Positions 1,209 through 58,171 of a stretch of 64,000 nucleotides of DNA are shown here, piece after piece. The translations under genes were made by a program, and so were the position numbers. The DNA is taken from the IMG/VR virus record IMGVR_UViG_3300045988_079322, one strand, 5' to 3'. This DNA comes from a virus. The stretch's first letter is position 1, and every line of letters starts with the position of its first letter. The notes beneath the pieces are model-generated. The model was given only the letters and a program-made list of their open reading frames with translations, made no database searches and was not told the DNA's origin.

Positions 1209-1245
1209 ATAAAGACTCCCTTTTAAGGGAGTCTTTATTTTTTTA
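1209..1245 (+). terminator. rho-independent terminator
   Basis: agactccctt ttaa gggagtcttt + T-run. Confidence 0.6.
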
Positions 1246-1293
1246 TAAAAATATTATATAATATATATAGAAAGTAAGAAAGGAAGTAAAATC

Positions 1294-3359: not shown

Positions 3360-3363
3360 TTTA

Positions 3364-3400
3364 AAGAGGATGGTTTTCTGCCATCCTCTTTCTTCTTTTG
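3364..3400 (+). terminator. rho-independent terminator
   Basis: aagaggatgg ttttctg ccatcctctt + T-run. Confidence 0.6.
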
Positions 3401-3462
3401 ATTTTTTATATATTTTATAATATAATATATACATAAAGAATAAGAAAGGAAGAGGATTGCCA

Positions 3463-3720: not shown

Positions 3721-3755
3721 CAAAGAGCTTTCTTGAGGAAGCTCTTTTTCTTTTG
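3721..3755 (+). terminator. rho-independent terminator
   Basis: agagctttcttgaggaagctcttt + ttcttttg. Confidence 0.55.
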
Positions 3756-3813
3756 CAAAAATTAAAAAATAATGATATAATAATTATAGAAAGTGGTTAA
3801 GGAGGTTTAAATT

Positions 3814-4296: not shown

Positions 4297-4502
4297 ATAC
4301 CTTATTAATCATTCTTGACACCTTTATGTCCGCATCATTCTTTGTTTTAGCTATTTTGGCCGATGAAAAAACTATTAAAGCATTGAGTAGTATCACAGCA
4401 GTTTGTTGGCTAATCAGTTGTATTCCTTACTATAATCGGAAAATTGGCAATCTGATTACCACTTTAGTTCAAGGAATCGGTTTGCAAAAAACAAAAAAAT
4501 AA
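4278..4502 (+). CDS. small membrane protein (start uncertain, GTG 4278 or ATG ~4326)
   Basis: ORF track; hydrophobic. Confidence 0.35.
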   Translation: MGEDEINTLLIILDTFMSASFFVLAILADEKTIKALSSITAVCWLISCIPYYNRKIGNLITTLVQGIGLQKTKK

Positions 4503-4543
4503 GTTATAATAATTATAGAAAGTGAGGAAGGAGATTTCTTGTA

Positions 4544-4852: not shown

Positions 4853-4932
4853 TCCAAGAAATTTTCTTGACTCTACTCAAAAAATATCATATAATATAAA
4901 TACAATAAAACAAGAGAGGAATTGATTAATTT

Positions 4933-5373
4933 ATGTCTAACACTGTAAAGAAGCCCACTAAGAAAGCCAATTATAATGCTATTTTGAGCATTCTGTCCGC
5001 CGCTGAGGGCGAGGGTCTCGTTCTCGAGTCCACAGAGATTACCTACGATAGTCTGCGCGAGTTCATTGAGCATGAGGTTGAGCTCCTTGATAATAAGGCT
5101 GCTGCTGCCGCTAAGAGAGCTGCTGCTAAGAAGGTCGAGGGAGATGCTCTTCGTGAGAAGATTTATGATGTTCTTACCGATGAGCCTATGACCATCAGCG
5201 ATATTGTAAAGGCTCTGAACGACGAGGATATTTCTGCTCAGATGGTAACTGCACGTCTGACTCAGCTCGCTTCTCCTGAGGTTAACCGTGTTGTGAAGGA
5301 GACTGTGAATGTTCCTGCTTCTAGCGAGGGTGGAAAGAGCAAGAAGCTTTCTGCTTATCGCAGAATTGGCTAA
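4933..5373 (+). CDS. hypothetical Ala/Lys-rich protein 146 aa
   Basis: ORF track. Confidence 0.55.
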   Translation: MSNTVKKPTKKANYNAILSILSAAEGEGLVLESTEITYDSLREFIEHEVELLDNKAAAAAKRAAAKKVEGDALREKIYDVLTDEPMTISDIVKALNDEDISAQMVTARLTQLASPEVNRVVKETVNVPASSEGGKSKKLSAYRRIG

Positions 5374-5380
5374 TTAAAAC

Positions 5381-5422
5381 CTTTAGAAAGGTAGCTACGA
5401 AGAGTAGCTACCTTTCTTTTTA
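5381..5422 (+). terminator. rho-independent terminator
   Basis: aaaggtagctac gaag agtagctaccttt ctttttat. Confidence 0.6.
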
Positions 5423-5673
5423 TCCACATTTTAGTACAAATTGCAAAACCAGAAGGCCCTCCCGGAAAATTCATAATGTGGCATACCGCACATAATATAA
5501 TAGCAATAACAATAGCAATAATAACCAGAAACATAGGTCAAACTCCTTTAACTTTTATTATATATTTATTATAACAAAGCAAAAGCACAATGTCAATTTG
5601 GCATTTTCTTCTCAAGATTGACGGGTTATTTATTATATGCTATAATAAATATATAATAAAGGAGGGTTGTTTA

Positions 5674-6447: not shown

Positions 6448-6515
6448 AATTAGATTTTATTATTTTTATATATTATAATATAATTATAAAGATAATAAAA
6501 GGAGTGTTTCTAAAA

Positions 6516-7249: not shown

Positions 7250-8554
7250 ATGATAGATTTAAGAGAATTAAAAAATGATTTTGAATCTATACTTGTTCAT
7301 TCTCAGGATTACCCCTTTTATTTAAACTCGGAGAATTTGATTTCTCAATGGTTAGAGGCTAAAAGGGATATAATCAACCTTTTTGGTGGAGAGTTGGTAT
7401 TAAGGAGTAAAGAACCAGTTAAGATTTTCTTAACAGAAGAACAGAGAGATAAAAGATTTGAAGAGTTCTTACAGGCTCTTGATGAAAACGGGATTCTAAC
7501 AGAGGAATTTGAATTATTTTTGCGCGTTAATAAAGATGGATTCTTTGATAATAAAGTTATGTTACCTTATCCATCTTTTAATATTCCGTTAGGATCAAAG
7601 CTCTCAAAATCTTTCAAAAAGTTTCTTAATAGTAATGAGATTGTCAGATGGGCGCAAGACATAGCATCAAGATATATTCAAGAGAATAAAATAGAAGGAT
7701 ATTTATATTTATCTGTTCATCCTATTGATTTTCTTACTATATCAGAGAATAATGAAAATTGGTGGTCATGTCAATCTTTAGACGGGGATTATAGAAGTGG
7801 AAATTTAAGTTATTTAGTAGATAAGACTACAATAGTAGCATATCTATCAAATGGGAAACAGGAATATTTAAAATGTTTACCAAAAGGAATGACATGGAAT
7901 AGCAAAAAATGGAGAATGTTAGTCCATACAGATGGAGAAAGAAATATCTACTACAATAGACAATATCCATATGAATCTAGAGATTTATTATCTAGTGTCC
8001 ATAGTATGTTAGTTTCATTAATAAAAAATGAAATGACTGAACCGATTGATTATGGCTTTAAAGTAATCCAATCTCAATGGAGTAGCGGGATGCTTACATA
8101 TAATCAGATCAACGCAGGTGGACGAACTTTTGACACTAGAGACGTGATTGATACAAATGACTATCTCGGTTATTCTGATTTAATTATCTCTAGTACATAT
8201 GCTCCTATTATATCGGTGAGCGATGATAAATTTCATGAGTATGCTGAAAACATAAATAAAAGCAAAAAGATTGAAGAAGTGTTCTTTAATAATGCTTTTA
8301 AAATTAAAATTGGGGAACGACCAATTTGTCCATGTTGTGGAACCGAATACATTAAACGTGAAGATTCATTTCTTTGTGATTATTGTATTTCAGAAAAAGA
8401 GGCAGATGAGGACTTCTTTTTGACTTGTGATAGTTGTTATCGTAGAATATACGATGAAGATGAAATTTATTGGATGGATGGCAGACCATATTGTAAAAAG
8501 TGCCATAATTTAATGCAACAAGAGGATAGATTAATCGAGGAGGACGATGAATAA
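7250..8554 (+). CDS. hypothetical protein 434 aa with C-terminal Cys-cluster zinc ribbon
   Basis: ORF track; CPCCG...CDYC...CDSC...CKKC. Confidence 0.6.
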   Translation: MIDLRELKNDFESILVHSQDYPFYLNSENLISQWLEAKRDIINLFGGELVLRSKEPVKIFLTEEQRDKRFEEFLQALDENGILTEEFELFLRVNKDGFFDNKVMLPYPSFNIPLGSKLSKSFKKFLNSNEIVRWAQDIASRYIQENKIEGYLYLSVHPIDFLTISENNENWWSCQSLDGDYRSGNLSYLVDKTTIVAYLSNGKQEYLKCLPKGMTWNSKKWRMLVHTDGERNIYYNRQYPYESRDLLSSVHSMLVSLIKNEMTEPIDYGFKVIQSQWSSGMLTYNQINAGGRTFDTRDVIDTNDYLGYSDLIISSTYAPIISVSDDKFHEYAENINKSKKIEEVFFNNAFKIKIGERPICPCCGTEYIKREDSFLCDYCISEKEADEDFFLTCDSCYRRIYDEDEIYWMDGRPYCKKCHNLMQQEDRLIEEDDE

Positions 8555-8865
8555 TGGCTAAACGTGGAGATGCAGCTCGTCAAAATGTAATGGATATAAT
8601 TTGCAAGGCTTTTGGAGAAGATTTTGTTGGAATTCAAGATAAGAAAATCTATGTGTGGGCACAAGATGGCGTAAATGGAGAGAAAATTCAATTTGCGGTT
8701 TCTATTACTATGCCAAAGACACCGATTGCGGGTGGTGGAGATAATGCGCCCTCTACATCAAGCTCAGGAGGGGCACCAGCAACTGAGTTTACTCCTACTG
8801 AGTTAGCTCCTGAAGATAAGGCCAAGATCGAAGAGCTAAAAAAGAGACTTGGAATTTTTGATTAA
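8554..8865 (+). CDS. hypothetical protein 103 aa
   Basis: ORF track. Confidence 0.5.
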   Translation: MAKRGDAARQNVMDIICKAFGEDFVGIQDKKIYVWAQDGVNGEKIQFAVSITMPKTPIAGGGDNAPSTSSSGGAPATEFTPTELAPEDKAKIEELKKRLGIFD

Positions 8866-8924
8866 AAATTTTGGGTATGGGTAATTAAATTATTCAGTAT
8901 AAAGTTTAATAATAGTACACTTCC

Positions 8925-8970
8925 CTCACTAAAGAGAGGCGTAAAGAAAAGACTTTAGATTTTACGCCTC
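8925..8970 (+). terminator. rho-independent terminator
   Basis: gagaggcgtaaag...ctttagattttacgcctctc + ttg. Confidence 0.5.
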
Positions 8971-8972
8971 TC

Positions 8973-9035
8973 TTGAAAATTAAAAAAAATTATTATATAA
9001 TATATATAGAAAGTTAAGGAAAGGAAGTTCTGAGT
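8973..9035 (+). promoter_or_regulatory. conserved promoter + 5'UTR/SD cassette (TTGAAA-N17-TATAAT + atatatagaaagttaaggaaaggaag)
   Basis: one of >20 near-identical copies upstream of genes. Confidence 0.65.
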
Positions 9036-9926
9036 TTGAAGATTTATCTCGACCTGGAAGCTAATTGCACCACCAATGAAGCAATTTCTATTGGTATGGT
9101 AACAGAGAATGGAGATACATTTTATAGTCTCATTCGTCCGCATACGAAACTTGACCATAATATAAAGGTTTTGACAGGAGTTTCTCAGGAAGATGCAGAC
9201 CAGGCTCCTAGTCTTGAAGAAGCAATGTTAGGAGTTAGAGAGTTCCTTTCCTTTCTTGATGAAGAAAATACTTTCTATCACTACGGCAAGAGTGATAGGG
9301 GTTTTCTTAGAGCTTCTATGGGCTTTACGACTGATATGAAAGCTCTTACTACTCTGCAATACATTCACAATAGATGTGAAAATGTTGACAAAAGGGTGGC
9401 GTCTCATTTTCGCAGGGATGCGATTGGTCTTAGGTCTGCGTATCTGACCATGAAACTTTCTTCTGAGGATCCAATTCAGAATCATAATGCTTTAGAAGAT
9501 GCCTGGATGTTGAAATACGTTTGGGAAAATATTGATGGATACACTCTTCCTGATGGGATTGAGCCGGTAAAAGTACCTAAGGTCAAGATGTCTTATGGTA
9601 AAAGCAAGGCTAATCCTGCAAGCCCGGAAGAGCTGATGAATCGCAGACTGACGGCGAAACAGCCGCGTTCCCGCAGAAATGAAGCGATTAGGAATTGTCC
9701 TGCTATTGATGACGATAAGTATAAGATTGCGGGAGTGGCGATTAAGGGTGAGCGTGAAATTCCCTTTAAAGAGATTTATGAAGTAAAAGGGTTCGTTCAT
9801 GTGGGCAGATTTAAAACTGCGGCCCAGGTTCTTCATGCTCTTGATGTTATTTACGCGGCCATGGAGACCGGTAAAGGTAATCCAGATACCAAAGGCTGGA
9901 TTTTTAAGAAAGTTGAAAAACAATAA
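9036..9926 (+). CDS. DEDDh 3'-5' exonuclease (DnaQ/RNase T-like)
   Basis: Exo motifs YLDLEAN ... HNALEDAWM; TTG start after cassette. Confidence 0.65.
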   Translation: MKIYLDLEANCTTNEAISIGMVTENGDTFYSLIRPHTKLDHNIKVLTGVSQEDADQAPSLEEAMLGVREFLSFLDEENTFYHYGKSDRGFLRASMGFTTDMKALTTLQYIHNRCENVDKRVASHFRRDAIGLRSAYLTMKLSSEDPIQNHNALEDAWMLKYVWENIDGYTLPDGIEPVKVPKVKMSYGKSKANPASPEELMNRRLTAKQPRSRRNEAIRNCPAIDDDKYKIAGVAIKGEREIPFKEIYEVKGFVHVGRFKTAAQVLHALDVIYAAMETGKGNPDTKGWIFKKVEKQ

Positions 9927-48485: not shown

Positions 48486-48560
48486 CTTAAAATTGGATTT
48501 TTCTATAAATAAATGATATAATTTTAATATAAAGATTTAAAAGATTAGGAGAAAACAATA

Positions 48561-51457: not shown

Positions 51458-51937
51458 ATGACTAATGCTCAAATTATTTGGAAATACTTTAAAGGCAAAG
51501 GTTTTAGTGATTGCGGAATTGCCGGTTTAATGGGTAATCTTTATGCCGAAAGTGGTCTTAATTCTATTAACTTATAGAACACCTATGAAAAAAAATTAAA
51601 AATGACCGACGCAGGATATACCTCCGCAGTTGATGATGGAAGGTATAAAAACTTTGTAAAAGATGGAGCGGGATATGGATTGGCTCAATGGACATTTTGG
51701 AGCAGAAAACAAAATTTGCTTTAGTTCTGTCAAAGTCGAGGTAAATCCATTGGAGATTTAAATACTCAATTAGATTTTTTATATTAGGAGTTAATTACAA
51801 GTTTTTCTAGTTTAGTTAAAATTTTGATTTCTGCCACTTCTGTCACAGAAGCCTCTACCGCAGTATTACTCTAGTTTGAAAGACCTTCAGACTAGAGTTT
51901 TTCTATGCAACAAAAGAGGGCTAATTATGGTCAATAG
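51458..51937 (+). CDS. phage tail-lysozyme-like peptidoglycan hydrolase domain (6 TAG); no TAA/TGA before the amidase gene, so possibly fused with 51989..52864
   Basis: IAGLMGNLYAESGL ... GYGLAQWT ... ERPSDQ...YY. Confidence 0.45.
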
Positions 51938-51988
51938 TATTATAATAAATTTGCTAACATTTCAAATGTAATTGAAGGAGGTAATAAA

Positions 51989-52864
51989 ATGAAATATAGC
52001 GATAGCAATAAACCACTTCAATGTATGATGACAAATAGCACTTGCTATAAACAAACACGCACCATGCAAGTTAAAGGAATCTTATGGCATAGTACTGGTG
52101 CAAATAATCCTAATTTAAAAAGATATGTATAGCCAAGCGATAATGATCCTAACTACACCAGTTTAATAAATAAATTAGGAAAAAATACTAGCAAGAATGA
52201 CTGGAATCATATATCTGTTCAAGCTGGATTAAACTGTTGGATTGGTAAATTGGCTGATGGAACAGTAACAACAGTATAGACAATGCCATGGAATTATCGT
52301 CCTTGGGGATGCGGTTCTGGGTCTAAAGGTTCTTGTAATAATGGATGGATTCAGTTTGAAATTTGCGAAGATGGATTAAATGATGCAAATTATTTTAACA
52401 AAATTTATGAAGAGGCTTGTCAAATTACTGCTTATTTATGTAAAATGTATAACATAAATCCATTGGGAACCACTACTTTAAATGGTATCACCGTTCCGAC
52501 TATTTTATGTCATGCTGATAGTCACAAGCTAGGATTAGGATCTAATCATGCAGATGTAAACCATTGGTTTCCAAAATTTGGGAAAAGCATGGAAACCGCA
52601 AGAACAGATGTTTATAATTTAATGTCAAATATCTAGGAGGATGATGAAGATATGACTGACGAGAAATTCGCTGAACTTATGAATACTTGGCTTACTAATA
52701 AAGCTAATGAAAAAGAAACTTGGGGCACCGATAATCTTGAATGGGCTAAAGCGAATGGGATTATGGCTGGAGACAGTGCTGGAAGAATGATGCCAAATAA
52801 ATTCTGCACTAGATTAGAAACTGTAACTATGTTAAGAAGATTGGCTGAAAAGCTAGGACTTTAA
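51989..52864 (+). CDS. N-acetylmuramoyl-L-alanine amidase (Amidase_2/PGRP) endolysin (3 TAG)
   Basis: RBS gaaggaggtaataaa; ILCHADSHKLGLGSNHADVNHWF; track ORFs 52283.. and 52652.. are in-frame parts. Confidence 0.6.
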
Positions 52865-53150: not shown

Positions 53151-53211
53151 GCAGAAGATTTTTCGGCATCTAATGATATTCCTATTGATCTCGATGGACC
53201 TATTTAATATA

Positions 53212-53252
53212 AAGGCTTAATGGGTATTTATCCCATTAAGCCTTTATTTGTT
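53212..53252 (+). terminator. rho-independent terminator
   Basis: aaaggcttaatggg tattt atcccattaagccttt atttgtttg. Confidence 0.65.
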
Positions 53253-53333
53253 TGTAGCTTGATTTTTCTTAAAATATATGATATTATATATTCAGAAAAT
53301 GAAAAGAATTAAAATAAAGGAGATTTATGTCTT

Positions 53334-55702: not shown

Positions 55703-58066
55703 ATGAGTTTAATTACTGAAGTTGATATTCTTGATGAAGCTAAAGAAAACTTCTTAACTTATGCAGAAGAGGTTCTTACTGATAGAGCTATCCCAGCCGC
55801 AGAAGATGGACTTCTAAGCGCCCAAAGAAAAATTCTTTGGACTATGGAAGATTATTTAAAGATGGATAATAAGAGTAAAACAAAAAAGTGTAATGCTATT
55901 GTTGGTTCTACTCTTGCAACATCTTACTTCCATGGTGATATAGCTTGCTATGGCGTTTTGAGAAAAATGGCTCAATCATTTTTAATGAGATACCCATTGA
56001 TTACAGGTCAGGGGCAACTGGGAACTCAAGAAAATAATGATATGTTTTCATCCTCTCGTTATACGGAGGCCAAGCCTTCATTATTTGCTGATTTGATGAT
56101 GAATGACTACAAGAAGGAAGTTGTTCCAGTTAAAGAAACTTATAATGGAGAATTTATGGAACCTGTAGTTCTTCCTTCTTTATTTCCTAATGCTATCTGT
56201 AACGGACGACAAGCTATCGGAATTTCTATGGCGCATAATTCAGCCCCGCATAATTTAACAGAGGTATGTAACGCAGCCATTGCCCTAATCGAAAAGGGCG
56301 ATCTTACTATTGATGAATTGCTTTCTTATATGCCCGGGCCAGATTTCCCTCTTGGCGGAACTGTCCTAAATATCAAAGATATAAAGTCCGCATTTGAAAC
56401 TGGAAAATCAAAAATCTCTCTTAAAATTCAAGGCGACTATGAGATAGATGGGCAAACAATTACCTTTACAAGTATCCCTTATCGAACTTACAGAAACAAG
56501 ATAAAGGAGCAAATTGAAAAGAATATAGACACATTTAGTGAGCTATTGGATGATTTCGATGATGAATCCAATATTGGGCAAAATAAGTTAGTATTCCATG
56601 TAAAATCTGGTGTATCTATTTCTAAAGCTCTTAATACCTTATTCCTGCTAACTGATTTACAATCTACTCTATCATACAATATGAATTATATTGTAAATGG
56701 AACTCCCAAATTATGCTCAATGCTGGATTTGCTTAAAGAATACATTAAACATCAAGAGACTGTATTAATTAGCGCTACTAAATTTGATAAAGAGAAAGCC
56801 GAAGCAAGAGCACACGTTCTTGAAGGGCTAATCGCCGCAGTTGATAAAATTGATGAAGTAATCAGTTTAATTAAACAGTCTGCGGGAAGAGCCGATGCGA
56901 AAACGAAGCTAATTGAGTTCTTATCTGTTGATGATGTTCAAGCTGGTGCTATCTTGGATATGAAATTAGGAAAACTTACAAGAATTGATAAGGATGAATT
57001 AGTAAATGAACTTCAAGAAAAGAGAAGTTTTATCGCTCAGTGTATAGAAATTCTAACAAAGCAAGAAGTTAGAAATCTCAAACTTGTCGCTAAAATTAAA
57101 GAACTTCGAGATAAATACGGTGATGCCAGAAGAACAAAACTTCTAAATACCGATATCCCTAAAGCTGAAAAAGAGCAAGTGGTAGTAGAAGCCAAAGACT
57201 GTATGGTAATAGTAACAAAAAAGAATACTGTAAAAAGAATAGATATAAAGAACTTTAAGTCTCAAAAGAGGAATACCACTGGAGTAAAGACCAATGGAGA
57301 TATTACAGTATTCTCGCAAAAAACCAATACACAAGATATGTTGATGGTCTTTTCTTCAAAAGGAAAAATGTATCGTGTCCTTGTTGATAATATCCCCGAG
57401 GGTACTAATACTTCTGTCGGTACTCCATTATCAGCAATTATTGAATTTGAAGATAATGAAGTTCCTATTGCTTATACTACTTTAGCGAGAGATACAGATA
57501 AAAAGTTTATATTCTTTGCTACAAAACGAGGAATTATTAAAAAGGTTCCCTTAGAAGAGTATGATGCAATGAAGAGAACCGGTATCGTTGCTATTAAGCT
57601 AAAAGAAAACGACGAGCTTTCTTCAATCACATTTATCAATCAAGAGGAAATGATGTTAGTTACAAAGAATGGTATGGTTATTAGATTCCCAACAGCGGAA
57701 ATGCCAATTTCTTCCAGAACCGCACAAGGAGTTAAGGGTATGAATGTTGCAGAAGATGATTATGTAATTGCTGCATTGCCCATCGACCAAGCTAAATATT
57801 TGGCTATTGTTTCTTCTAACGGATTAGGAAAAAAGGTTGAGTTAAAAGAATTTACATTGCAAAACCGTGGAGGAAAGGGCATCTCCTGTTATAAAGATAC
57901 TATCTCGGGTGCAGAGTTAGTGGATGATGATGATCTGATTTTAATTTCTGGAAATAAAACTTCTATAGTTATTAAAGTGTCAGATTTTCCTTTGTTAAAT
58001 AGAACTTCTATGGGAAATATTATGCTGAAAGATAATGAGCAAATAATTTCAACATCTAAGATTTAA
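55703..58066 (+). CDS. type II DNA topoisomerase breakage-reunion subunit (GyrA/ParC-like)
   Basis: AIPAAEDGLLSAQRKILW; 787 aa with C-terminal beta-pinwheel-like repeats. Confidence 0.8.
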   Translation: MSLITEVDILDEAKENFLTYAEEVLTDRAIPAAEDGLLSAQRKILWTMEDYLKMDNKSKTKKCNAIVGSTLATSYFHGDIACYGVLRKMAQSFLMRYPLITGQGQLGTQENNDMFSSSRYTEAKPSLFADLMMNDYKKEVVPVKETYNGEFMEPVVLPSLFPNAICNGRQAIGISMAHNSAPHNLTEVCNAAIALIEKGDLTIDELLSYMPGPDFPLGGTVLNIKDIKSAFETGKSKISLKIQGDYEIDGQTITFTSIPYRTYRNKIKEQIEKNIDTFSELLDDFDDESNIGQNKLVFHVKSGVSISKALNTLFLLTDLQSTLSYNMNYIVNGTPKLCSMLDLLKEYIKHQETVLISATKFDKEKAEARAHVLEGLIAAVDKIDEVISLIKQSAGRADAKTKLIEFLSVDDVQAGAILDMKLGKLTRIDKDELVNELQEKRSFIAQCIEILTKQEVRNLKLVAKIKELRDKYGDARRTKLLNTDIPKAEKEQVVVEAKDCMVIVTKKNTVKRIDIKNFKSQKRNTTGVKTNGDITVFSQKTNTQDMLMVFSSKGKMYRVLVDNIPEGTNTSVGTPLSAIIEFEDNEVPIAYTTLARDTDKKFIFFATKRGIIKKVPLEEYDAMKRTGIVAIKLKENDELSSITFINQEEMMLVTKNGMVIRFPTAEMPISSRTAQGVKGMNVAEDDYVIAALPIDQAKYLAIVSSNGLGKKVELKEFTLQNRGGKGISCYKDTISGAELVDDDDLILISGNKTSIVIKVSDFPLLNRTSMGNIMLKDNEQIISTSKI

Positions 58067-58068
58067 AG

Positions 58069-58105
58069 ATAAGAGTAGCTTTGCTACTCTTATCTTTAGT
58101 TGACT
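58069..58105 (+). terminator. rho-independent terminator
   Basis: agataagagtagc tttg ctactcttatct tt. Confidence 0.6.
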
Positions 58106-58171
58106 TTTATTTTTAATAAGATTATAATATTATATATAATAAAAGTAATATTATAATAGAAAGGTTATAAT

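Follow-up and report, generated by a model that had tools for sequence, protein, structure and literature searches.

The DNA considered here is a 64,000-nt stretch of the virus record IMGVR_UViG_3300045988_079322 in IMG/VR (hereafter the window, and the 64 kb to which the analysis applies), and the element in question is a promoter-like cassette at positions 8973-9035 that recurs along it. At this focal site, TTGAAA, a 17-nt spacer (ATTAAAAAAAATTATTA), TATAAT, ATATAT and AGAAAGTTAAGGAAAGGAAGTTCTGAGT succeed one another and lead directly to a TTG start codon at 9036, which opens the gene for a 296-aa, RNase T-like DEDD exonuclease. The genes of the window all lie on the plus strand, with the possible exception of one small open reading frame (ORF), so the cassettes are co-oriented with the genes. 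An earlier note on this sequence had the cassette reused upstream of more than 20 genes; the reuse is real and was under-counted, amounting to 28 sites (Table 1).

The copies are far in excess of chance expectation. Exact matches to TTGMAA-N17-TATAAT number 11 in the window, against 0.16 expected from shuffles, and both the 24-mer TATAATATATATAGAAAGTTAAGG and the 20-mer core of the leader, when up to three mismatches are allowed, match six times each (0.00 and 0.05 expected, respectively). A repeat finder returned overlapping families of 9-14 copies each. A position matrix, iterated from the copies and used to scan both strands of the window, converged on 27 sites, each on the plus strand, which together with the site at 58100 make up the total of 28; its four minus-strand matches are low-scoring mirror images of AT-palindromic plus-strand sites, none of them independent. 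Each of the earlier note's 19 positions coincides, to within ~20 nt, with a sigma-A-like promoter site. Nine sites had been missed (−35 starts 3398, 4867, 5618, 6451, 9913, 10518, 11899, 48494 and 59461), and at 58100 the promoter claimed there holds (TTGACT-17-TATAAT), but the conserved leader is absent. Judged by its sequence, the repeat is a near-consensus promoter of the housekeeping-sigma (sigma-A) type followed by a short purine-rich leader. Its copies precede auxiliary, replication and tRNA genes, in what has the appearance of the early or auxiliary part of a large phage from gut or rumen.

The core shared by the copies reads TTGA-N19-TAT(G)nTATAAT-ATWTAT-A(G/T)AAA(G)(T). The spacer measures 17 nt in all 28 copies, and the −10 box is TATAAT in 25 and TATTAT in three. 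At −35, the columns T, T, G and A are occupied in 27, 24, 21 and 24 of 27 sites, with TTGA present in about 18-20 of the 28 copies; upstream of the −10 box, T (24/27), A (26/27) and T (26/27) precede a G in 15 of 27 (a TRTG/TGn extended −10); and the bases that follow it are A, T, W, T, A, T, A, (G/T), A, A, A, G and T, each in 17-27 of the 27. The seventh base past −10, the predicted +1, is A in 25 of 28. The spacer is A-rich, C is almost absent from the −35 box to ~40 nt beyond −10, and G is almost absent from −35 to the predicted start. The full set of sites thus bears out the architecture described in the earlier note (−35 box, 17-nt spacer and TATAAT, often with an extended −10). Its "near-invariant" 26-nt leader was overstated: the leader is exact in two copies (8973 and 36246) and carries one mismatch in two others and three in another two, so that only six copies fall within three mismatches of the 20-nt core, with AGAAAGT exact at 11 and A(G/T)AAA at 19 of the 28 sites. 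The consensus TATGnTATAAT fits the −16 region or extended −10 (TRTGn, followed by TATAAT) of Gram-positive sigma-A promoters, reportedly the subject of work by Voskuil and Chambliss in 1998, and that region is one element only of this cassette. The TG of the extended −10 is present in all five terminator-fused copies from 33269 to 44535, all of which lack TTG at −35; across all copies, an association of TG with a poor −35 box is not significant (6/9 versus 8/18, counted on the matrix sites).

Directly upstream of about 12 of the 28 copies lies a hairpin resembling an intrinsic terminator, of −14 to −24 kcal/mol, the T-tail of which extends into the −35 position. Such terminator-promoter fusions would insulate units from one another, and the region would be cut into many short transcription units. 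Downstream, the leaders of protein genes are about 15-40 nt long (23-31 nt in most) and C-poor, with AAGGA/GGAG purines that form the Shine-Dalgarno (SD) sequence. In 17 of the 21 coding copies the start codon lies 27-38 nt past −10, which implies a 5' untranslated region (UTR) of roughly 20-31 nt. An unusually strong SD was considered and rejected: the mean pairing energy is −11.2 kcal/mol where a cassette leads the gene and −9.5 kcal/mol in 35 internal genes, the ranges overlap, and the strength is ordinary, as scored against a generic Bacillota-type anti-SD tail that may differ from the 16S of the host.

Fixed register and spread among phages

The start of the leader is tied to the −10 box. 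The arrangement TATAAT-N6-AGAAAGTTAAGGA occurs in at least 115 IMG/VR stretches, the N5 version in none and the N7 version in three, and this N6-only register ties the 13-mer to the −10 box and, with it, to the predicted start of transcription. Among the matches listed there are 131 distinct N6 sites; in these, N6 is almost always A/T only, TGn/TRTG is present, and TTG, which played no part in their selection, stands at a distance of exactly 17 nt before the −10 box in 112. When a matrix limited to the segment from −35 to −10 was run over 736 kb of related loci, it yielded 213 further distinct sites, and the bases downstream of these, unused in the scan, again give ATaTATA(G/T)AAA. The motif keeps its distance to −10, whereas the distance from −10 to the start codon ranges from 21 to 52 nt among short-leader copies.

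The related loci had been fetched by the motif itself, which was controlled for by the scan restricted to −35 and −10 and by collapsing orthologues to 208 clusters (112 coding, 21 tRNA and 75 other contexts). An all-A/T discriminator was found in 88% of coding, 90% of tRNA and 83% of other contexts, A at +1 in 97%, 81% and 84%, and AGAAAG in 37%, 52% and 35%; an SD-like tract was found in 88% of coding contexts, as against 38% of tRNA and 45% of other ones. The cassette is made up of two parts: a transcription-level core, from −35 to about +7, which is independent of context, and a translation-level SD tract, which is specific to coding genes. In several long-leader or tRNA-followed relatives (L060 at ~10938-11010, L050, L063, L064, L010 and L034), the start AGAAAGT or GTTAAGGAAG pairs with a downstream ACTTTCT or CTTCCTTAAC, such that the predicted transcript opens with a 5'-terminal hairpin.

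The motif reaches well beyond close relatives of the window. The L. delbrueckii phage LL-Ku carries TTGACT-17-TATAAT-TAATAT-AGAAAGTTAAGGAAA, which its depositors annotate as the −35/−10 of putative promoter P5, just after putative terminator T7; PMBT4 contains the exact 27-mer; and close variants are present in Enterococcus podovirus ZEF1, Enterococcus phage H1, L. brevis phage SAC12B and Staphylococcus phage CF5. Carriers range from 18-kb podoviruses and 31-kb siphoviruses to gut and rumen contigs of 115-200 kb. SAC12B, a Lactobacillus phage, also contains TATAATAGATTCATA, which we take to be the −10/start region of T5 N25. A full-text literature search for the 12-mer AGAAAGTTAAGG returned no paper. 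Applied to phage H1, the genome of which is complete at 138 kb, the matrix from the window yields 16 sites, every one in the orientation of the genes around it: 15 are in regions of replication, nucleotide metabolism, ORFans and tRNAs, one is at the edge of the structural block (88.1 kb), and none lies inside 34.5-87 kb. Early or middle promoters that use the host polymerase would be expected to show such a distribution.

Neither megablast of window positions 8000-12000 against GenBank phages nor tblastn of the 434-aa ORF at 7250-8554 returned a match, and these two queries thus revealed no close relative in culture; the 811-aa protein with a major-vault-protein (MVP) domain (Table 1) has GenBank-phage matches only in uncultured phages of 462-735 kb, at 38% identity. 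IMG/VR contig 3300045988_093451 (114 kb) includes pieces that are 95-99.7% identical to the window. The exact 24-mer TATAATATATATAGAAAGTTAAGG is present in 75 IMG/VR stretches but in only eight contigs among 185,579 species genomes; all eight are in metagenome-assembled genomes (MAGs), several labelled gut or rumen, and the four that measure 139-149 kb are probably mis-binned phage DNA. Two of the eight (L076, 139 kb, from rumen, and L078, 21 kb, from goat ileum) were binned as Methanobrevibacter; it is almost certain that these are phage DNA that ended up in archaeal MAGs by mis-binning. The strong use of SD sequences, the TRTG motif and the MAG labels point to a host among the low-GC Gram-positive bacteria, probably Bacillota.

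Probable transcription units behind the cassettes

Genes served by the cassettes include tRNA genes, the transfer-messenger RNA (tmRNA), the ROOL RNA, a set for NAD salvage and many ORFans, in addition to genes for Thg1-like, polynucleotide-kinase-like, phosphoesterase, gyrase, ligase and PhoH proteins. The copies within the tRNA array (9913, 10518 and 11899) are 87-97% identical to one another over 38 nt and lack the AGAAAGT leader.

Table 1. Cassette copies and neighbouring features in the window. Positions of −10 boxes are given in parentheses after their sequence; "17" denotes the spacer length in nt.
Feature	Position	Strand	Promoter elements and leader	Start codon	Neighbouring features
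Cassette	1234-1293	+	TTTATT at −35 position, TATAAT (1257-1262), ATATAT, AGAAAGT...	ATG 1294	terminator-like hairpin 1207-1240 fused upstream
Cassette	3398-3462	+	TTGATT-17-TATAAT (3421), ATAAAG leader	ATG 3463	hairpin 3363-3391 upstream
Cassette	3753-3813	+	TTGCAA-17-TGaTATAAT (3776), AGAAAGT, SD AAGGAGG	ATG 3814	hairpin 3722-3747 upstream
Cassette	4482-4543	+	TTGCAA-17-TATAAT (4505), AGAAAGT	ATG 4544	
Cassette variant	4867-4932	+	TTGACT-17-TATAAT (4890), leader ACAATAAAAC...	ATG 4933	
Cassette variant	5618-5673	+	TTGACG-17-TGcTATAAT (5641)	ATG 5674	divergent minus-strand promoter at 5596-5568
Cassette variant	6451-6514	+	TAGATT at −35 position, TATAAT (6474), ATAAAG	ATG 6515	
Focal cassette	8973-9035	+	TTGAAA-17-TATAAT (8996), ATATAT, AGAAAGTTAAGGAAAGGAAG	TTG 9036	hairpin ~8932-8974 overlaps −35
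tRNA-type promoter	9913-10012	+	TTGAAA-17-TATAAT (9936), ATTTAT		before tRNA-Ile 10013; family D6
Cassette	10263-10321	+	TTGAAA-17-TGaTATAAT (10286), AGAAAGT	ATG 10322	
tRNA-type promoter copy	10518-10560	+	TATAAT (10541)		175-nt leader to TAG-containing HNH-like gene at 10722
tRNA-type promoter copy	11899-11940	+	TATAAT (11922)		upstream of tRNA-Ala 12110
Cassette	14427-14492	+	TTGAAA-17-TATAAT (14450), full leader with one mismatch	ATG 14493	
Cassette	18208-18268	+	TTGAAA-17-TGaTATAAT (18231), full leader with one mismatch	ATG 18269	heads tRNA-Val/tRNA-Gln/ROOL RNA unit
Cassette	26611-26691	+	TTGCAA-17-TATAAT (26634), AGAAAGTTAAAG	ATG 26692	
Cassette	27326-27375	+	TTGACA-17-TGaTATAAT (27349), AGAAAGTTGAAAG	ATG 27376	suppressor tRNA(CTA) 27798 downstream
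Cassette	30468-30527	+	TAGACA at −35 position, TATAAT (30491), AGAAAT	ATG 30528	vault-like gene unit; hairpin 30422-30454 upstream
Terminator-fused cassette	33269-33335	+	TTTATT, TGaTATAAT (33292), ATAAAGGA	ATG 33336	hairpin 33240-33274
Terminator-fused cassette	36246-36308	+	TTTATT, TGaTATAAT (36269), exact full leader	ATG 36309	hairpin ~36222-36249
Terminator-fused cassette	39895-39953	+	TGaTATAAT (39918), ATAAAGGAAAAGGAG	ATG 39954	hairpin 39869-39902; isochorismatase/nicotinamidase-like gene
Terminator-fused cassette	42145-42203	+	TGaTATAAT (42168)	ATG 42204	hairpin 42122-42146; NAPRTase
Terminator-fused cassette	44535-44595	+	TGaTATAAT (44558)	ATG 44596	hairpin 44513-44538; phosphoesterase
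Cassette	46190-46252	+	TTGAAA-17-TATAAT (46213), AGAAAGTTGAGGAATGGAGG	ATG 46253	polynucleotide-kinase-like gene
Cassette variant	48494-48560	+	TGaTATAAT (48517), ATAAAG	ATG 48561	
Cassette variant	53259-53333	+	TTGATT-17-TGaTATTAT (53282), AGAAAA	ATG 53334	gyrB + gyrA unit; hairpin 53209-53247 upstream
Promoter without conserved leader	58100-58171	+	TTGACT-17-TATAAT (58123)	ATG 58172	DNA ligase unit; hairpin ~58066-58096 upstream, placed by eye
Cassette variant	59461-59524	+	TTGACA-17-TATTAT (59484)	ATG 59525	ORF with in-frame TAG codons
Cassette variant	61885-61935	+	TTGACA-17-TGtTATTAT (61908)	ATG 61936	MarR-like winged-helix protein
Minus-strand promoter	5596-5568	−	TTGACA-17-TGtTATAAT		divergent from plus-strand TTGACG-17-TATAAT, 5618-5646
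Sole obvious minus-strand ORF	5370-5534	−			54 aa, preceded by the minus-strand promoter
tRNA array	10013-28764	+			30 tRNA genes and tmRNA (ARAGORN)
tRNA-Ile(tat)	10013-10107	+			unusual length, 95 nt
tmRNA	16370-16685	+			tag DNDYFENYLAA
ROOL RNA	18994-19589	+			Rfam RF03087, 350 bits, model positions 1-574, full-length; between tRNA-Gln(ttg) and tRNA-Gln(ctg)
tRNA-like Rfam match	19856-19974				119 nt, possibly intron-containing
tRNA-like Rfam match	20249-20333				
Suppressor tRNA, anticodon CTA	27798-27872	+			
DUF2828/DUF7788 and vault-like genes	28894-33229	+			506-aa DUF2828/DUF7788 protein, small ORF, 811-aa protein with MVP shoulder and repeat domains
NAD-related cluster	39954-44515	+			isochorismatase/nicotinamidase-like, phosphoribosyltransferase/PRPP-synthetase-like, YqeY-like, NAPRTase, NAD synthase
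Thg1/kinase/phosphoesterase group	45308-47331	+			Thg1-like tRNA-His guanylyltransferase, polynucleotide-kinase-like P-loop protein and metallophosphoesterase adjoin
MarR/TrmB-like winged-helix DNA-binding protein	61936-62337	+			directly behind a cassette; candidate phage transcription regulator

Several of these neighbourhoods deserve comment in their own right. The ROOL RNA is probably transcribed from the cassette upstream at 18208. Three terminator-fused cassettes serve the NAD-related cluster, and the adjoining Thg1-like, polynucleotide-kinase-like and metallophosphoesterase genes suggest a module for the repair of tRNA or other RNA. That a phage encodes NAD salvage raises the speculation that transcripts starting with +1 A might be NAD-capped.

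The window also carries signs of an altered genetic code. Eight of its 57 long plus-strand ORFs end in TAG, and all eight stay open in frame for 18-298 further codons, while several genes (10722-11243, 38998-39870, 51458-52864 and 60070-60981) contain 4-11 in-frame TAG codons; in this phage, which also has a suppressor tRNA with anticodon CTA, TAG is apparently translated as sense. First genes behind cassettes are without TAG in 21 of 26 cases. Two of the TAG-rich genes, 10722-11243 and 38998-39870 (both plus strand), are paralogues, with 5' ends that are 77% identical (repeat D17) and with Cys-rich repeats, and by eye they look like HNH or homing endonucleases. A 97%-identical relative (L055) lacks the second of them, having ~220 bp in place of window positions 38844-39860, and in this comparison the second paralogue looks like a mobile insertion adjoining a cassette.

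Function and alternative explanations

The reading that we favour, with a probability of roughly 0.8, is that the cassettes are a class of phage promoters that depend on the host sigma-A, are optimal at every known element and, where a protein gene follows, continue into a short SD leader that is rich in purines and unstructured. Such promoters would combine a −35 box TTGA(M)A, an A-rich spacer of 17 bp, the −16 TRTG/extended −10 (TATGnTATAAT) of Gram-positive bacteria and a consensus −10 box with a discriminator of six A/T bases, an A at +1, either G or T at +2 and a purine-rich initial transcribed sequence. This last feature fits observations on strong phage promoters limited by escape, at which the polymerase leaves readily from a purine-rich start but not from a pyrimidine-rich one (PMC12464699). 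Being all A/T, the segment between −10 and +1 should be easy to melt, a property that may count when the DNA has only just been injected. Where copies are nearly identical all the way from −35 to the start codon, this could reflect both selection on each element and copy-and-paste recombination between cassettes, as in T4-type PeSL elements. The genes served (tRNAs, ROOL RNA, ORFans and those for NAD salvage, tRNA repair, gyrase and ligase) make it most likely that the class acts early, or early/middle, and depends on the host polymerase. The earlier note had proposed one regulon of very strong constitutive or early promoters; a single promoter class is what we find, and a strong, early-type activity is a reasonable inference from the promoter annotation in LL-Ku and from the position of the H1 sites outside the structural block.

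Several observations weigh against this reading. The GTT between AGAAA and AAGGA is invariant across unrelated phages, for which selection on promoter elements offers no obvious explanation. A G at +2 would turn the RNA into a preferred substrate of Bacillus RppH and is counter-selected in B. subtilis transcripts (PMC3997798), which would be odd for an element shaped for maximal expression. That cassettes are absent from late genes rests on the analogy with phage H1, as 64 kb are seen here, and the MAG labels of the eight genome matches span Clostridia, Bacilli, Erysipelotrichia and even Methanobrevibacter, a spread probably due to mis-binning of phage contigs. The breakpoints between related loci, which bear on the copy-and-paste component as well as on the first alternative below, are only weakly enriched in cassettes: after collapsing, 4 of 47 fall inside them, versus 4.6% expected, and 11 of 47 lie within 100 nt.

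The alternative that survives best, and one compatible with a promoter role, holds that the cassettes are primarily recombination modules, mobile in the manner of the PeSL elements of T4-type phages, that are kept alike by gene conversion and horizontal spread and by which accessory genes are shuffled; we regard this as a serious possibility, at somewhat less than even odds. It would account for the composite terminator-promoter units formed by about 12 of the 28 copies, and for the 81% identity over 72 nt between the copies at 8973 and 14427, which reaches beyond the SD as far as the start codons, although the genes themselves are unrelated. Homology between the window and three related loci (L018, L027 and L040) extends across the focal cassette and ends at 9037, where a different gene follows (ungapped identity of 28%, which is chance level), and for two others (L060 and L083) it ends at 9022, within the leader; indels adjoin cassettes at 8842/8853, 39860 and 48411. 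There are precedents in PeSLs (PMC2839356, PMC4122927) and in putative mobile promoters (PMC3488235). Apart from the weak enrichment just given, what speaks against this explanation is the large number of breakpoints that fall in gaps of the tRNA array, at a long distance from the nearest cassette. A role in recombination is therefore best regarded as plausible and additional to promoter function rather than as demonstrated.

A narrower proposal, which we hold only tentatively and consider rather unlikely, is that the 13-mer 5'-AGAAAGUUAAGGA, always 6 nt past −10, may be a discrete functional element that spreads within a mobile promoter cassette. It could act in docking of the 30S subunit, in tuning decay by RppH or RNase J1, or as a DNA element of the start region that maximises escape of the sigma-A polymerase. 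An element of this kind would explain why GTT is invariant and why the register is exact, two features that the usual rules for promoters and SD sequences leave unaccounted for. Two further candidates for the conserved start were dropped: a sigma-dependent pause element in the initial transcribed region, as TTAAGG and TAAGGA are poor −10 matches by eye, and complementarity to the 16S site of the T7 epsilon enhancer, as the leader presumably has the same sense as that rRNA segment and is not its complement.

Closely related is the possibility that the leader (AGAAAGUUAAGGAAAGGA...) is a specific RNA element, whether a site for a translational regulator or RNase, as the earlier note had suggested, or a 5'-proximal, polypurine or SD-like stabiliser of the STAB-SD or SP82 type that docks ribosomes and protects against 5'-to-3' decay by RNase J1. 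In its favour, the exact 13-mer is common to unrelated phages, 18 of 20 leader bases are purines, and the 16S 3' tail of the Bacillota type, CCUCCUUUCUA, can pair with AGAAAG and GAAAGGAAG at about −11.6 kcal/mol; several long-leader related loci, moreover, have the 5'-terminal AGAAAGT/ACTTTCT hairpin. SD-like 5' stabilisers are also known (PMC4113751, PMC7509114). The best-conserved part of the cassette is, however, equally frequent before tRNA genes and before coding genes, so that a target for a translational regulator or RNase is not needed to explain its conservation, and the motif is locked to −10 while its distance from the start codon varies. Nor do the leaders fold more stably than shuffled controls, a check that the earlier note had proposed: 14 of them, folded as RNA, gave −1 to −8 kcal/mol with z-scores of −1.2 to +1.8 relative to shuffles and no conserved structure, and the leader itself matches no Rfam family at the gathering threshold. 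In short leaders the purine tract is a working SD of ordinary strength, the T after AGAAAG is left unpaired with the 16S tail, and a 13-mer common to unrelated phages of 18 kb to 200 kb is unlikely to have one regulator. The suggestion of a regulator or RNase target is not supported by these data, and we consider an RNA element of any of these kinds unlikely.

It is more doubtful still that a phage DNA-binding protein uses the bases around +1 as its operator and in this way shuts off the whole promoter class or sets its timing. The conserved block does overlap the start site in all members of the class, and a MarR-like winged-helix protein is encoded directly behind one cassette (61936-62337), but AGAAAGTTAAGG has no dyad symmetry and the block is conserved across phage families with few genes in common. 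Finally, we reject as very improbable the idea that the motif is recognised by an RNA polymerase or sigma factor that the phage itself encodes: the core, of ~24 nt, is unusually long and exact for a sigma-70 type, its portion over the start (...TATAG, −4 to +1) resembles the T7/SP6 class, and TATAGAAAG resembles the SP6-type start region TATAGAAG, but the canonical −35/−10 arrangement is present, with TGn/TRTG and with TTG at its fixed distance in most unselected sites; the motif is also found in phages of 18 kb and 31 kb (ZEF1/AE4_17, LL-Ku and PMBT4), and to our knowledge phages of 18-31 kb have no polymerase of their own; the NADFDGD motif was not found in 800 kb of window and related loci, a weak negative; and the ~40 window ORFs scanned, a subset, held no sigma-factor or RNA polymerase domains.

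Comparison with known systems

The closest analogue of the cassette is the terminator/promoter cassette of T4-type phages, the PeSL (PMC2839356, PMC4122927), which likewise combines a repeated terminator stem-loop with a strong sigma-70-like early promoter, and which is also intergenic, placed before small accessory genes or ORFans. PeSLs mark junctions where close relatives differ in gene content, for which the cassettes offer one clear case (9022/9037, in five loci). The differences are several. The cassette occurs in another group of phages with another type of host (among the subset of ~40 window ORFs scanned, none was seen to be a T4-like hallmark gene), its promoter is of the Gram-positive type with TRTG and is followed by a strong SD, its hairpin is present in only about 12 of 28 copies, with stems that are not of the GGGG...CCCC type, its conservation extends past +1 into the leader, and breakpoints are weakly enriched. 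It works like a PeSL or a T5-type early promoter unit, but the difference in phage group and in type of host places it outside the T4 PeSL family.

With the sigma-70 early promoters of T5, T7 and T4 (for T5 N25, see PMC12464699) the cassette shares near-consensus −35 and −10 boxes, an A/T-rich context and a purine-rich start. Coliphage promoters of this kind are likewise present in many copies per genome and are used by the host polymerase right after infection, as the cassette would be. What sets the cassette apart is its specific 13-nt start, AGAAAGTTAAGGA, which is common to phage families and locked at +1; we know of no such shared initial transcribed sequence in coliphage early promoters.

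Three further systems are similar in part. STAB-SDs (PMC4113751, PMC7509114) and the SP82 stabiliser (cited in PMC3997798) are polypurine, SD-like tracts within the first ~20 nt of a Gram-positive or phage transcript that are complementary to the 16S 3' end; most cassette tracts are instead the real SD of the first gene, which makes a separate stabiliser unnecessary. STAB-SDs are defined as not being used for translation initiation, whereas in 17 of the 21 coding copies the tract is a working SD. The SAS/ESAS of Cluster K mycobacteriophages (PMC3203893) resemble the cassette in being short, asymmetric repeats with an SD core that lie in one orientation upstream of many non-structural genes, are conserved across related phages and are rare in host genomes, but a SAS sits 3-7 bp from the start codon and outside promoters, whereas the cassette motif is fixed to −10 and also precedes tRNA genes. 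Putative mobile promoters (PMC3488235), for their part, are near-alike upstream regions that precede non-homologous genes within and between genomes, as cassettes do; that survey concerned bacterial chromosomes, whereas the cassette spreads among phages and includes the transcription start and leader.

Set against these systems, the cassette is a feature of an ordinary kind, and the one point that might surprise specialists is the start-locked 13-mer common to unrelated Bacillota phages. Its copies provide a predicted transcription map of an uncultivated, tRNA-rich, TAG-recoding phage, consisting of ~28 short units, among them those that probably express the ROOL RNA, tmRNA, suppressor tRNA and NAD-salvage genes. 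The motif would also constitute a compact, portable and probably very strong expression unit for low-GC Gram-positive hosts, and the signature TATAAT-N6-AGAAAGTTAAGGA could flag Bacillota phage DNA in metagenomes and reveal mis-binned phage contigs. Should the start-locked 13-mer prove to function by itself, phages would have in it a previously unrecognised element in common for the control of early expression.

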